Below, piece after piece: positions 24,495 through 29,915 of a stretch of 64,000 bases of DNA. This DNA is from Lachnospiraceae bacterium (GTDB taxonomy: Bacteria; Bacteroidota; Bacteroidia; Bacteroidales; Bacteroidaceae). Positions within the stretch are counted from its first letter, which is position 1. Every line of letters begins with the position of its first letter. A model generated the notes under the pieces. That model did no database searches. It was not told the DNA's origin and saw nothing but the letters and a program-made list of their open reading frames with translations. A program made the position numbers and the translations under genes. The stretch lies in contig CAVKCP010000001.1 of the NCBI GenBank assembly GCA_963654815.1, forward strand, positions 11,954-75,953, given 5' to 3'.

Positions 24495-27047
24495 ATGGCC
24501 GACAACAACACTTCATCAAACCGCAACATTCTCGGCAACCTTTTGAGTCAGTATGCCGCAATGCCAGCAGCATCGATAGCCCAACGCGTTAACGATGCCC
24601 TCGCCACAAACAACACGTTGGTGGTGACTGCACCTCCGGGAGCTGGAAAATCGACACTGCTTCCGCTCACTATGTTGTCGGGCATTGACGGTTGCGGAAA
24701 AATACTGATGCTCGAACCACGACGGCTTGCCGCAAGACAGGTGGCTTGCCGTATGGCCGAAATGCTGCACGAGCCTGTAGGCCGGAAGGTGGGTTATCGA
24801 GTGCGGTTTGACAGTTGCACGTCGGCCGACACGCGCATAGAAGTGCTCACCGAAGGCATACTCACGCGCATGATTGTTGACGATGCCACACTCGACGGCG
24901 TTGACATCGTGGTGTTCGACGAGTTTCATGAGCGCAGCATCAATTCTGATTTGGCACTCGCTCTCGCCCGACAGACACAGCGGCTCATACGTCCCGATCT
25001 GAAAATAGTGGTGATGTCGGCCACAATCGATACCGCCGACATCTGCAATGCTCTTGGTGCTCCGGCCATAGAAAGTGCCGGGCGGATGTTTGACGTGCAG
25101 ACCGTGTATGCCGAAACCGACTTGCAACGCACCGACACGGCACATGCCGTGGCTGTGGCCATAAGCCGTGCGCATGCCGAACACGAGGGCGACATACTTG
25201 CTTTTCTGCCGGGGCAAGGTGAAATAGAACGGTGTGCACAGCTGCTTTCCGACTCGCTTGCACCCACGGCAGTGATGCCGCTCTATGGAAATCTGCCGCC
25301 CGAAAAGCAACGGCAGGCCATAATGCCTTCGCGGCAAGGTTGCCGTAAGGTGGTTCTTGCCACTCCCGTGGCCGAAACCTCGATTACTATCGAGGGCGTG
25401 AGGGTAGTGGTTGACTCCGGGTTGTGCCGCAAACCGGTGTTCGACCCGCACACCTCGCTCAGCAGTCTTGCCACCGTAGGCATAAGCCGCGATATGGCGG
25501 CACAGCGCAGAGGCCGTGCCGGACGTGTGGCCGACGGCATTTGTTACCGACTTTGGACGCTCGCCACCGAGCACCGAATGGCAGAAAAACGCGTGCCGGA
25601 GATTTTGGAGGCCGACCTCGCCCCGATGCTTCTCGACATACTTGCCTTTGGTGAGACCGATATTTACAATTTGCCGTGGCTCACTCTGCCACCGAAAGCC
25701 AACGTGCAAAAGGCTCACAATCTGCTCGTGTCGCTCGGGGCTGTGGGCAACGACGGACGTATAACGGTTTTTGGCAAGCGTCTGGCTGCAATGCCGTGCC
25801 ATCCTCGTATTGCAAGGATGATACTTGAAGCTGATGACGGCGCGCTGAAATGTCTTGCTTGTGACATTGCTGCCTTGGTGGAGGAGAAAGACCCTATGGC
25901 CGACAACCCTGACTCCGACATGCTTCTGCGCATTGCTTCGTTGCGCACAGGGCGCATGCGCCGTTCGTTGGGGCGTTGGACGCGCATCGAACAAATTGCA
26001 CACGACTATCGCCGCATGGCACATGTCGAGGTTGACAACAGTGCGGTGTCGGCCTACGACATAGGTATGCTTGTGGCATACGCATGGCCTGAACGCGTGG
26101 CGCAGGCTTCAGACACTGCCGGACTCTACCGGCTGTCGGGTGGGGGCGACGTGCGTGTAGCCTCGGACGACTCGGCATCGGCCTACCAATGGATTGCCGT
26201 GGCTTCGCTCAATATGTCGGCCAACGGCGGACGTGTGTTTCTTTCTGCGCCGATAGACATTGGCGCACTCGTGGAATCGGGATCGCCGATAGTGGGCGAA
26301 TATGACAATGTGTCGTGGGACAGCAAGGCGGGGCGCGTGGTGCAACGCCATGAGTGGCGCATAGGGAGGCTCGTTGCCGACAGCAAACCCATACAGAATG
26401 CCGACAAAAACATGGTGGTGGCTATCGTGTGCGATGCCGTGAAGAAAAACGGGGTGAGTCTGCTTGAATGGAACGAGGCCGTGGAACGCTTGCAATGTCG
26501 TGTGGCCACGGTTGCTGAATGGCATCCCGAACTGGAAATCCCCGACCTCTCGACACAGAATCTGTTGGCTTCGGCCGATAGTTGGCTGCCGCTTTATCTG
26601 GAAAGCAATGGCCGTATGGCCACCGATGTGCAGGCCTTGAAGAAAATAAATATGGAAGAAATGGTGTGGAGCCTTGTGCCATACGACATGCAGCAAACCA
26701 TAAACCGGCTCGCGCCAACGCATATAAAAGTGCCTACGGGCAGCAACATACGCATAGACTACCGCAAGGGGGCATCGGCACCAGTCGTCAGCGTGCGCCT
26801 GCAGGAGTGTTTTGGTATGGAACAGACACCAAGTGTCGATGACGGGCGTTGCCGGTTGCTGCTCGAACTGCTGTCGCCGGGATTCAAACCGGTGCAGCTC
26901 ACGCAGGATTTGGAAAGCTTCTGGCACTCAACCTATTTTGAAGTGCGCAAGGAATTGAAACGCCGATACCCAAAACATTATTGGCCGGAGAACCCGCTGG
27001 AAGCCGAGGCCGTGAGAGGAACAAGGCGCAATGTGCGTGGGAAATGA
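24495..27047 (+). CDS. hrpB: ATP-dependent RNA helicase HrpB
   Basis: GAGKST, DEFH, MSAT and QRRGRAGR motifs; HrpB C-terminal VRLQE...ELKRRYPKHYWP. Confidence 0.96.
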   Translation: MADNNTSSNRNILGNLLSQYAAMPAASIAQRVNDALATNNTLVVTAPPGAGKSTLLPLTMLSGIDGCGKILMLEPRRLAARQVACRMAEMLHEPVGRKVGYRVRFDSCTSADTRIEVLTEGILTRMIVDDATLDGVDIVVFDEFHERSINSDLALALARQTQRLIRPDLKIVVMSATIDTADICNALGAPAIESAGRMFDVQTVYAETDLQRTDTAHAVAVAISRAHAEHEGDILAFLPGQGEIERCAQLLSDSLAPTAVMPLYGNLPPEKQRQAIMPSRQGCRKVVLATPVAETSITIEGVRVVVDSGLCRKPVFDPHTSLSSLATVGISRDMAAQRRGRAGRVADGICYRLWTLATEHRMAEKRVPEILEADLAPMLLDILAFGETDIYNLPWLTLPPKANVQKAHNLLVSLGAVGNDGRITVFGKRLAAMPCHPRIARMILEADDGALKCLACDIAALVEEKDPMADNPDSDMLLRIASLRTGRMRRSLGRWTRIEQIAHDYRRMAHVEVDNSAVSAYDIGMLVAYAWPERVAQASDTAGLYRLSGGGDVRVASDDSASAYQWIAVASLNMSANGGRVFLSAPIDIGALVESGSPIVGEYDNVSWDSKAGRVVQRHEWRIGRLVADSKPIQNADKNMVVAIVCDAVKKNGVSLLEWNEAVERLQCRVATVAEWHPELEIPDLSTQNLLASADSWLPLYLESNGRMATDVQALKKINMEEMVWSLVPYDMQQTINRLAPTHIKVPTGSNIRIDYRKGASAPVVSVRLQECFGMEQTPSVDDGRCRLLLELLSPGFKPVQLTQDLESFWHSTYFEVRKELKRRYPKHYWPENPLEAEAVRGTRRNVRGK

Positions 27048-27064
27048 AGGATATTTTTACTCTT

Positions 27065-27264
27065 TTAAGGTGGGTTCTATAAATTGGCTTTGTCAGATTG
27101 CGAGGCTGTTTTCGAGGACAATTTGTCTGCGAGTGAGGGAGTATAGCGGGCTATACGACTGAACGAGTAGACGGATTGGACCGAAAAGAGACCGCAAGAT
27201 GACAAAACGCAACCCGTTATATTAATTCTTGTTTTGCGGTGGGAATTTATAGAACCCACCTTAA
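27065..27264. mobile_element. MITE-like non-autonomous element, about 200 bp including flanking TTAA
   Basis: Perfect 21-bp inverted ends TTAAGGTGGGTTCTATAAATT (27065-27085) / AATTTATAGAACCCACCTTAA (27244-27264). TTAA (or TA) on both sides; no transposase; long internal hairpin; removing it restores a clean gene end. Confidence 0.85.
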
Positions 27265-27756
27265 TACCTTTGGCGTCCAGTTTTTAAGGAATCGGATCAC
27301 TTTTTCTTCGCTATATCCCTTGCCTTCTTCAAGGAAACTTGAGTCTTGGATGTGCATTATTTCGCCTTCACGGTTTAAAACTACAAACACGGGGAAGCCG
27401 AACCGCTGCGGATTGCCAAGGCGTTTAAGGAGAGTAGCGGCCTTTTGGGCTGCTTCGTCGCCTGCTGCTTTACGGGGATTGTAGTTGACGTGAATGTAGA
27501 CAAAGTTCTCGTTAACGACCCTGTTCACCGTTGTGTCTTTCTCAACGAAATCGGCAAAGCGCAGACACCACGGGCACCAGTTGCCGCCCAATTGGCAAAT
27601 TACAAACTTGTCTTCGGCTTTGGCCTTGGCTACAGCGTCGTCGATTTGTGCAATAGGGTCGATAGTTTCATCGTAAACCTTTTTCAATGTTCCTTGGGCA
27701 TTGGCTGTCAGTATGGCGAATGCCATGCCGACAAAAATAATAAAAAGTCGTTTCAT
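27247..27756 (-). CDS. Exported thioredoxin-family protein; last codons and stop supplied by the MITE end
   Basis: Signal peptide from MKRLF, WCPWC motif, GFP cis-Pro loop. Confidence 0.9.
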   Translation of the reverse strand: MKRLFIIFVGMAFAILTANAQGTLKKVYDETIDPIAQIDDAVAKAKAEDKFVICQLGGNWCPWCLRFADFVEKDTTVNRVVNENFVYIHVNYNPRKAAGDEAAQKAATLLKRLGNPQRFGFPVFVVLNREGEIMHIQDSSFLEEGKGYSEEKVIRFLKNWTPKVLRWVL

Positions 27757-27833
27757 GTATTTTGCTGATATGTTGTTTTGTGCAAATGCGGGTGTCTTTA
27801 CCGTTTCGTGAATGAAAAAATACTGTGGCACAC

Positions 27834-29915
27834 TTATTCTATATAGAAATCTTCGTTGTCTATGTTGCCCGCCTTGTCGGTTTGCTCCGTCGGTTTCTTT
27901 GGCTGCTTTTTCAGGTTGCCCTTTTCGTCGAACATTCCGTATGTGGTGCGCAGTACGATGAATTCGGTGCGGCGGTTGAGCTGGTTGCATATTTCCTGCT
28001 TCTCGTCGTCGAGCTTCTTTATGAAATCTTCGGTGAGCACGTCATTCTCTTTCAGCCAGTTGTATTTCTCGGTGAGCTTCTTCTTTATTGTCTTGGGTTT
28101 CTCTTTTCCGTAGCCCACGGGCGACAGACGGTCGCGTGAGATGCCCTTGGCCACAAGATATTCAACCACTGTTTCGGCACGCCTTTGTGCCAGTAGTTTG
28201 TTATATTCGGCCGACCCCTTGTAGTCGCAGTGCGCACTTAGTTCGATGGTCACGTTGGGGTTCTCGTTAAGGAGCTTAACCAACTCGTCGAGAGCTGCGG
28301 TGGATTCGGGGCGTAGCGTAGCCTTGTCGAAATCGTAGAAGATGTTGTCGATGAGTACGGGGGCAGTGATTGATGCAAGCGGGAACTGCAACACATGCTC
28401 TTTCGACTCTTCAACCGGCTGCACCTGCAACTCTTCTTTGTGGTTGAGGTAGCCTTTGCATGTAGCAAGGAATATGTAGTCGATGCCGGGATTGACAACT
28501 GCCTCGAACGAACCGTCGCCCTTCACACCGAGTCTTTTGTTGGTTCCGTCGCTTCCCACCATATATATCTGTGCGGCAGGCAGTTCGTAACCGTCCTGCT
28601 CATACACCCAACCTTTCACGTTTTGCACAATCTCGGGGTTCTCAAAACTGTATATATGATCCCAACCACGGCCGTCGTTGCGGTTTGACGAGAAATAGCC
28701 CCGGTTGTGCACGCCCTCGAAAGTCATTCCGAAGTCGTCGCCCTGTGAATTGAGCGGATAGCCCGGGTGCTCGATGTGGTATTTGCCGTCTTTGCCAACT
28801 GTTGCTATGAAGATGTCGAGACCACCCATGCCCGGATGCCCGTCGCTTGAAAAATAAAGGTCGCCGTTGGGGCGGAATGTGGGAAATTCCTCGTTGCCCG
28901 GCGTGTTTATAGGTTCGCCGAGGTTTTCCACGCCACCCAGTCCGGCAGGTGTTATGCGTGCCCTCCAGATGTCAAGTCCGCCCATACCGCCCGGCATGTC
29001 CGACACGAAATAAAGCCACTGGCCGTCGGGTGATACGGCAGGATGTGCATAACTTGACAGAGTGTCGCGTGTGATTTCGAGCGTAGTAACCTTGCCCCAT
29101 GCCGCATCGGCACGGTTTGATGTGACTATTTGCGCATAGCGTGGATAAGAAGCATCGGTAAGGCATTGTGTGAGATACATGGTGCGTTGGTCGGGCGAGA
29201 GCGAGCTTGCTCCCTCATCGGCTTCGGTGTTGAGCCCGCCGGTCACAGCTTCGGGTTTGCCCCAGTGTCCCTTGTCGTCTTTCTGCGACACGAATATGTC
29301 GCCGTTTTTCGCTCCAGTTATTCCGCTCACCTCATTGCCCTGCGCCTCATTGCGCGTTGATGTGAAATAAAGCATTTCATATTGGTCGCCTGCAAGCATT
29401 GGCGAATAGTCGGCACGGCGTGAGTTGAACACATCCATGCGCTTCACCGTATAACGCGAACCCTCGTCTTTCATCTTCTGGGCGCGCTGCGCCGAGTACA
29501 ATCCGTTGCGCGCGAGCTTGTCATCGGGCATTGAGTCGAGCACGTTCTTGAATTCCTGCTCGGCCTGTTTGTAGCTGCCGTTTTTCAGCAGTTGCCTTGC
29601 ATACTCGAGCCGTGCCGTGTTGTCGGCCTGCCCGTAGCGTATGGCATTGCTGTAAGCGGCTATCGCTTTTTGTGTGGCGTTGATGCGGCGGTTGCACTCA
29701 GCAATCTTAAGGGCTATTTTTCCGCGCCTTTCACGCTCTTTGGGCGAGGTGCGGCTGTAAGCCTGCTTGAATTGTGTTGCCGCATCGTAATACTCTCCGA
29801 GCGCAAGATACTTCTCTCCCTTTTTCAGGTTTTTGTCGGCTCCGCACCCCGAAAAAAGCAATGCCGTTGCTGCGACAAGGATGAGTGCCAGATATTGTGT
29901 GTTGATTTTCTTCAC
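27834..29915 (-). CDS. porE: Type IX secretion system lipoprotein PorE (TPR, PD40 and OmpA_C domains)
   Basis: Lipobox FSGC, TPR-like N-terminus, PD40 repeats (LYFTSTR, LYFSSDG), OmpA_C IFYDFDKATL...NRRTEF; GTG start. Confidence 0.85.
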   Translation of the reverse strand: MKKINTQYLALILVAATALLFSGCGADKNLKKGEKYLALGEYYDAATQFKQAYSRTSPKERERRGKIALKIAECNRRINATQKAIAAYSNAIRYGQADNTARLEYARQLLKNGSYKQAEQEFKNVLDSMPDDKLARNGLYSAQRAQKMKDEGSRYTVKRMDVFNSRRADYSPMLAGDQYEMLYFTSTRNEAQGNEVSGITGAKNGDIFVSQKDDKGHWGKPEAVTGGLNTEADEGASSLSPDQRTMYLTQCLTDASYPRYAQIVTSNRADAAWGKVTTLEITRDTLSSYAHPAVSPDGQWLYFVSDMPGGMGGLDIWRARITPAGLGGVENLGEPINTPGNEEFPTFRPNGDLYFSSDGHPGMGGLDIFIATVGKDGKYHIEHPGYPLNSQGDDFGMTFEGVHNRGYFSSNRNDGRGWDHIYSFENPEIVQNVKGWVYEQDGYELPAAQIYMVGSDGTNKRLGVKGDGSFEAVVNPGIDYIFLATCKGYLNHKEELQVQPVEESKEHVLQFPLASITAPVLIDNIFYDFDKATLRPESTAALDELVKLLNENPNVTIELSAHCDYKGSAEYNKLLAQRRAETVVEYLVAKGISRDRLSPVGYGKEKPKTIKKKLTEKYNWLKENDVLTEDFIKKLDDEKQEICNQLNRRTEFIVLRTTYGMFDEKGNLKKQPKKPTEQTDKAGNIDNEDFYIE

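Follow-up and report, generated by a model that had tools for sequence, protein, structure and literature searches.

Organization of the locus

Within the window, by which we mean the whole 64,000-nt stretch of DNA that was analysed, two genes converge on a short non-coding segment at positions 27065-27264. On the plus strand, at 24495-27047, lies the gene for an HrpB-type ATP-dependent helicase of 850 amino acids (hrpB; Pfam HrpB_C, 9.1e-48, with DEAD and Helicase_C domains), which ends 21 nt before the element described below. Its convergent neighbor, on the minus strand at 27247-27756, encodes a thioredoxin-like protein of 169 amino acids with a signal-like N-terminus and a CPWC motif (Pfam Thioredox_DsbH, 1.8e-10; Thioredoxin_7, 2.8e-9).

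The original prediction, made from the letters alone, described perfect 21-bp inverted ends with TTAA at their outer edges. The region 26500-27800 indeed contains a single inverted repeat, whose 21-nt arms (27065-27085 and 27244-27264) are 100% complementary and separated by 158 nt, and TTAA flanks both outer edges of the 200-nt segment. Each arm is made up of TTAA, a 4-bp target duplication (27065-27068 on the left, 27261-27264 on the right), and the 17-nt terminal repeat GGTGGGTTCTATAAATT, which occupies 27069-27085 on the plus strand and 27244-27260 on the minus strand. Read without the element, the junction is TCTT-TTAA-TACC.

Between the outer TTAA sequences lies an element of 192 bp (27069-27260, plus strand) in which comparison of copies reveals no conserved reading frame. 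Its longest frame, of 60 codons, runs uninterrupted in only 11 of 31 copies, and in 14 a stop codon appears within 9-14 codons; the frame is therefore not a gene, in keeping with the earlier view that the segment holds no credible one. Folded as DNA, the 200 nt reach -45.1 kcal/mol, compared with -17.6 +/- 2.9 kcal/mol for shuffled sequences (z -9.6; none of 200 shuffles as good). Rfam covariance models gave no match at E <= 1 in 26900-27400, and simple scans of 26800-27900 found no promoter-like or terminator-like site.

The 3' end of the thioredoxin-like gene

The thioredoxin-like protein now ends ...NWTPKVLRWVL*, and its stop codon (27247-27249) lies within the right arm. The right terminal repeat codes for W-V-L and the present stop, so that the RWVL ending and the stop derive from the target duplication and the element. 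When the element and one TTAA are removed, the minus strand reads AAG GTA TTA AAA GAG TAA, or ...PKVLKE*, and the inferred former stop TAA falls at 27057-27059 (minus strand), now 6 nt outside the element. Both endings had been predicted and both were confirmed from the sequence; the insertion likely swapped the last two residues, KE, for four, RWVL. Prior to the insertion, the hrpB stop and that of the convergent thioredoxin-like gene (27045-27059) would have been only 9 nt apart, which leaves no room for a terminator there.

The stop codon within the terminal repeat had been proposed to let the element land in a gene end with little damage. The stop does lie in the repeat and is used by the gene, but it serves only one reading frame in three. 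Reading inward from the duplication, the frame used here stops at a TAA in the terminal repeat, a second one ends at the TAA that a TTAA duplication supplies, and the third runs on for 32 or 60 codons according to which end is entered. The small damage would thus be partly the luck of the frame, combined with selection after the event. For the gene itself we expect little effect, as the thioredoxin fold and the CPWC motif lie far upstream and are untouched.

Of 150 other genomes of the genus, 48 yielded an orthologue of the thioredoxin-like gene. The best 29 of these, all from species representatives and 59-70% identical, were read to their stops. They end ...WTPKAVKQ*, ...KAVK*, ...QAIKG* and similar, and in 20 of the 29 the K/Q-A-V(I) motif is followed by exactly two residues, just like the reconstructed KE*. 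No RWVL ending occurs among the 29, nor is there a terminal-repeat-like site at any of these loci (about 1.5 kb on each side, less at contig ends). The gene is not adjacent to hrpB at any of the 29 loci, the adjacency being seen only in the window's genome; the loci therefore support the ancestral protein end and are not true empty sites. The original prediction had suggested looking for an empty site; no true empty allele was found among representatives of at most 70% identity.

Copies and target duplications in the genome

The window's genome is that of a gut-type Prevotella, assembled as 2.78 Mb in 186 contigs, 95.7% complete and with no contig below 2060 bp. The 200-nt segment gave 40 matches of at least 100 nt in this genome, at 87-100% identity, and a local blastn search gave 51 matches of at least 60 nt. 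The terminal repeat occurs at 81 exact sites and at 57 more with one to three mismatches (138 in all). Pairing of ends yielded 37 complete copies with 175-195 bp between the ends, and many further copies are cut off at contig ends, so the expectation of a multi-copy element was borne out. Numerous terminal-repeat sites lie only 35-150 nt from a contig end; this crowding indicates that the repeat breaks the assembly. The 17-nt terminal repeats are conserved in all copies.

A perfect 4-bp direct repeat lies immediately outside the ends in 26 of the 37 complete copies, and five more show it with one mismatch. When left and right flanks were paired at random (1000 trials), the mean number of perfect duplications was 4.35 and the maximum 12. 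The 26 duplications read TTAA (7 copies), TTTA (7), TATA (4), TACA (2), TAAA (2), and TGAA, ATAA, TTCA and TCAA (one each). Among the 11 complete copies that have no perfect duplication, those on contigs C26 and C178 share their right flank with the copy on C73 and are assembly duplicates. As the duplications vary from locus to locus, the TTAA of the window copy is target duplication and not part of the element, which sets the limits of the element proper at 27069-27260. The TTAA duplication proposed earlier is accordingly real as a 4-bp duplication, but the form is more generally TNNA, with TTAA in only seven copies.

Measured against the majority sequence of 31 family members, the window copy has 2 changes in its 192 positions. 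Across these members the number of differences ranges from 1 to 29; 15 copies lie within 6, the oldest at 21-29, and in several pairs identity reaches 99-100%. The copy in the window is in the youngest tier. That the insertion is recent had been argued from the unmutated ends, and the two differences, the perfect ends and the perfect duplication all uphold this.

By rough gene calls, the copies lie in very narrow gaps where the 3' end of a gene is often 0-20 nt away, and the A/T-rich TNNA target naturally overlaps stop codons. At 17 of the 21 sites with gene calls on both sides, the element sits between genes of the same strand. Relative to incoming transcription, 19 copies are in the opposite and 9 in the same orientation by these rough calls, a bias that is not established.

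The element is an ordinary miniature transposon, a real MITE, and the 192-bp segment in the window is almost certainly a non-autonomous insertion of it flanked by a TTAA target duplication. The original prediction was thus correct about the anatomy, the class of mechanism and the recent date.

Distribution and subfamilies

Among 401 genomes of the genus, 89 contain a degenerate form of the terminal repeat, GGNGNGTTCTATWAATT, and none contains this pattern read backwards, which served as the control. At least 20 terminal-repeat sites are present in 19 of these genomes, with a maximum of 127, a sign that bursts took place in 19 of the 401 species sampled. Similarity over the whole element was detected in 4 of 36 same-genus genomes and in none of 24 genomes from other families of the order. 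Plasmid and phage collections contained no match to the 200 nt.

The window's genome also carries at least two further subfamilies of about 193 bp, with ends beginning GGCGTG... or GGCGGG.... They follow the same hairpin plan as the window's family and share with it the central motif GGAGTATAGCGGGCTATACGAC. Examples are found at C164:472-664, C35:16693-16886, C18:21121-21313, C6:18833-19025 and C91:9915-10108.

A conserved internal hairpin

The interior of the element contains a long imperfect hairpin (27089-27206, plus strand; coordinates converted by hand from alignment columns 21-146) whose structure is conserved across subfamilies. To assess it, we aligned and jointly folded 19 elements taken from six genomes and representing every available subfamily. 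Standard pairs account for 95.5% of cells in paired columns, compared with 80.3% in shuffled alignments and 45-52% when the partners were slid by 1-3 columns. Changes on both sides were seen in 32 of 55 pairs, against 9-15 with slid partners, and the covariation score was 0.439, against at most 0.116 in the slid controls. Five internal helices (columns 21-146; about 27089-27206 in the window) carry most of the covariation signal, so the hairpin is not merely the pairing of the terminal repeats with each other.

The hairpin is also strand-biased. With the ends removed, every one of the 19 elements gives a more stable RNA fold for the plus strand (window orientation) than for the complement; these are related sequences and not 19 independent trials, although the direction holds across subfamilies with many compensatory differences. 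For the window copy, the values are -63.2 kcal/mol for the plus strand and -37.9 kcal/mol for the complement. The mismatches of the hairpin are G-T on the plus strand and C-A on the complement. These observations point to selection on a single-stranded form, either transcript or ssDNA, and suggest that such a form matters for the spread or persistence of the element.

A stronger version of this idea is that selection acts on the hairpin itself: an RNA or ssDNA structure specific to one strand, kept through compensatory changes in at least six Prevotella species, would make the MITE a mobile 3'-end module putting stem-loops into tight gaps, often at stop codons. We regard this as speculative and rather unlikely. 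If true, the stem-loop would set the transcript ends or stability of flanking genes, and bursts of transposition would rewire operon boundaries across the genome.

An IS5-family candidate for the transposase partner

We searched the window's genome for a transposase that could move the element. Models PF01609 (DDE_Tnp_1) and PF05598 (DUF772), a 119-aa IS5-family piece and an IS982-family piece each gave no hit in this assembly. In a draft with a contig floor of 2060 bp, a collapsed IS contig of 1.3 kb could be missing. Inspection by eye of frames on contigs below 4 kb, and of those within 2.5 kb of 13 unpaired terminal repeats, likewise recognised no transposase. Separately, a frame on contig C171 (2314-2787) that begins ...LAKNYIHLVFSTKGR... 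resembles, by eye, an IS200/RAYT-type tyrosine transposase.

Other genomes of the genus were more informative. A DDE_Tnp_1 scan of five MITE-rich genomes found, in genome G224, the 3' part of a transposase gene running toward TTAA followed by GGTAGGTTCTATTAATT. This end of the truncated copy is identical to G224's own MITE repeat at 16 of 17 positions. Relatives of the G224 transposase are present in 11 of 401 genomes of the genus and are full length in three. The G407 element is 1312 bp long with ends GGGATGTTCTAAAAATT and GGTAAGTTCTAAAAATT, its left flank being lost at the start of a contig; the G139 element is 1371 bp long with ends GGGATGTTCTATAAATT and GGTAATATCTATTAATT; and the G243 element is 1325 bp long with ends GGGGAGTTCTAAAAATT and GGTGGGTTCTAATAATT. 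Both full-length copies with two flanks, those of G139 and G243, are bordered by the 4-bp duplication TAAA. The ends of the three elements match the MITE repeat of the window at 13-15 of 17 positions (14-15 of 17 for the best-matching ends).

The G407 transposase, 356 amino acids long, carries DUF772 and DDE_Tnp_1 domains and scores 276 bits on the IS5-family model NF033581 (cut-off 140). Elements of the IS5 group typically have GG ends and 4-bp duplications (ISfinder). The members of the IS5 group found here (NF033581; G139, G243 and G407) resemble the MITE in ends that begin with GG, in the repeat GG..GTTCTA.AAATT, with a 13-16 of 17 match, and in a 4-bp A/T-rich TNNA duplication. They differ from it in that the MITE lacks both a transposase gene and any detectable resemblance to their interior, and no full-length member was found in the window's genome.

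Inspected by eye with their ends side by side, the MITE and the full-length elements showed no clear similarity past the 17-nt repeats. Simple deletion within such an element thus does not account for the MITE, and its connection to IS5 is drawn from the ends and the duplication length. Its interior is a hairpin kept by compensatory substitutions, not the remnant of an IS5-family element. With these ends and this duplication length, the partner of the MITE appears reasonably likely to be an IS5-family transposase. The original prediction had left the family unnamed and had called for an insertion sequence with the same ends. Such elements do exist, with a duplication of 4 bp and ends that agree with the MITE repeat at 13-16 of 17 positions, but only in other genomes of the genus; the family is thus most likely IS5-related, with no transposase found in the window's own assembly.

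At two further loci, L292:1-372 (G301:C86) and L293:1437-1808 (G335:C13), a MITE-type end, GGCTGGTTCTATAAATTAGCTTTGTTAG..., and about 46 nt are followed by the 3' part of an IS5-family transposase gene. This junction could be a recombinant or a MITE inserted in an IS, and it may bear on the origin of the MITE.

A model of the insertion event can be drawn from these elements. A DDE transposase would make a staggered 4-bp cut at TTAA, and repair of the gaps would create the duplication; an IS5-family transposase would move the MITE in trans; and the insertion would have fallen two codons before the stop of the thioredoxin-like gene, where it was presumably tolerated because only the last two residues changed. 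We consider the account as a whole probable, namely that a 192-bp MITE with a TTAA duplication likely inserted two codons before the thioredoxin-like stop and was likely mobilised in trans by an IS5-family DDE transposase absent from the assembly.

IS982-family elements and other alternatives

A different partner has to be weighed, as the MITE may have been mobilised by an IS982-family and not an IS5-family transposase. Prevotellaceae commonly carry IS982-family elements, whose ends, A-CGTGAGTTCGATGAATT, are similar to those of the MITE, agreeing at 13 of 17 positions at the very termini and at 14 of 17 in the L272 variant. These are fewer matches than with the IS5-family ends, which reach 15-16 of 17 and share the 4-bp duplication. 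The two kinds of element also coexist, since one MITE copy in G224 contains a full IS982-family element and, at locus L118, a further element of that family adjoins a MITE end. Precedents are available as well. A MITE derived from IS982 is described for Cardinium (PMC9769881), and in P. gingivalis MITE239 and MITE700 have ACGTGAGTTCGA-type ends like those of ISPg3 (PMC4596501), as in the IS982-family elements here.

The target duplications speak against such a partner. IS982-family copies with both ends show a duplication of 6-8 bp and of the form TA..TA in 53 of 104 cases, compared with 4 bp in 26 of 37 MITE copies, and the IS982-family piece had no hit in the window's own genome. The IS982-family copies examined (L079-L237; 104 copies, 1024 bp) almost always read ...TAA/CGTGAG...CTCACG/TTA...; with their ends taken as A...T, the duplications of the 53 copies have the form TA(N2-4)TA, so that the target is strongly patterned. 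On balance, we regard mobilisation by an IS982-family transposase as unlikely.

The apparent parent in G224 dissolves on inspection. The locus G224:C48:81-1371 spans 1291 bp, with MITE-type ends and IS982-family frames, and was considered as a transposase-bearing parent of the MITE; it was rejected because its interior is a separate, nested IS. Its left 230 bp and right 30 bp align with the 262-bp MITE variant of G224. Between them (L072:307-1330) lies a complete IS982-family element of 1026 bp. It has separate ends (A-CGTGAG...CTCACG-T), a 6-bp TATTTA duplication of its own and frameshifted transposase frames, and it is 77% identical over its full length to a copy in P. bivia.

A conserved composite of MITE and IS982-family element was also considered and set aside. 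The junction pattern occurs in 29 of 401 genomes, but none of 20 fetched loci has a MITE end; TATTTA is simply a favoured IS982-family target. The intact IS982-family gene of the MITE-rich genome G389 was rejected too, as its element has ends ACCCGTTGGCGG... and is unrelated to the MITE. Scans of genome and metagenome contigs with the IS982-family piece covered 160 loci and found a GTTCTATWAAT-type end only in the G224 element and at L118, and both of these ends belong to MITEs.

At L118 (640-2986; Prevotella sp. P3-122), the right end of an IS982-family element abuts a 46-nt remnant of a MITE right end, at the same TATTTA site as in G224. The element is interrupted by a transposase-like frame of 408 amino acids (1125-2351), and its left flank is not MITE-like.

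Quite apart from which family is involved, the autonomous partner may be extinct in the lineage, which would make the MITE an orphan and its copies immobile relics. The absence of a recognisable transposase from the window's own assembly fits this, as does the IS5 query, which was negative in 18 of 19 MITE-rich genomes and in the remaining one, G224, hit only the truncated copy. Against it, 15 of 31 members carry at most 6 differences from the majority and several pairs reach 99-100% identity, which points to very recent movement; moreover, drafts with a 2-kb contig floor routinely lose IS copies, and many contigs end inside the MITE. An extinct partner is, in our view, quite unlikely.

It is extremely improbable that the element is no transposon at all. 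It would then be a structured-RNA gene or a REP-like palindrome, dispersed by some other means (e.g. an IS200/RAYT tyrosine transposase), with the flanking TTAA a coincidence. The strongly conserved hairpin with its covariation and strand asymmetry and the IS200-like frame on C171 speak for this, but they are outweighed by locus-specific 4-bp duplications at 26 of 37 copies (about 4 by chance), which REP/RAYT spread is not known to leave, by terminal repeats in common with DDE-transposase elements that make the same duplication, a signature of DDE cut-and-paste or copy-paste, and by the lack of an Rfam match.

Comparison with known elements

The preferred reading, a non-autonomous MITE with a likely IS5-family partner, can be set beside several known systems. 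The enterobacterial ERIC/IRU and the neisserial Correia elements are palindromes of about 100-200 bp that occupy narrow gaps between genes and, once co-transcribed, act at the RNA level through their hairpin; Correia elements also have short A/T duplications. The Prevotella MITE is similar to both in size, palindromic structure and location in tight gaps. It has no sequence relation to them.

Closer in taxonomy are the MITEs of P. gingivalis (BrickBuilt, MITEPgRS/MITE464, MITE239 and MITE700), which are also Bacteroidales elements, short, non-coding, intergenic and nested with IS elements. They are tied to their ISPg parents by near-identical terminal repeats only ('type II' MITEs), as here (PMC4596501). 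The terminal sequences differ, being GAGACC... or ACGTGAG... in P. gingivalis and GGTGGGTTCTAT... in Prevotella. BrickBuilt duplications vary in length and the element contains a minisatellite (PMC4596501), whereas the Prevotella MITE has a regular 4-bp TNNA duplication and a long covarying hairpin. The copy number of the Prevotella MITE is also far higher, with about 90 terminal-repeat sites, against about 19 copies for BrickBuilt (PMC4596501).

In the Cardinium endosymbiont, MITECca01 comes from ISCca4, an IS982-family element; it is likewise from Bacteroidota, about 240 bp long, present in high copy number and found by manual curation (PMC9769881). Its inverted repeats are like those of a resident IS, and its IS982 parent is intact in the same genome (PMC9769881); for the Prevotella MITE, IS982 fails on duplication length.

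Literature searches, by string with 14-letter pieces of the ends and by topic (MITE/Prevotella and IS982/MITE), returned no description of the family in the literature they covered. A MITE survey of 183,232 genomes expanded the Bacteroidota set to 81,380 elements (PMC11602168), and the supplementary tables of such large Bacteroidota catalogues may already list it.

For annotation, the MITE family explains many contig breaks in this and other Prevotella drafts, and some odd gene ends. For transposon biology, it offers a clean, high-copy Bacteroidales case with a regular 4-bp TNNA duplication, whose likely IS5-family partner is seen only in other species. Its sole unusual feature is the well-supported, strand-biased, covarying hairpin.

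One other repeat was observed near the MITE copies. At C118:1227-1412 of the window's genome, a 54-nt unit occurs three times at a 66-bp period, and it recurs beside MITE copies at the end of C30, at C77:2402-2455 and at C26:52-100; this unit may represent another repeat family.
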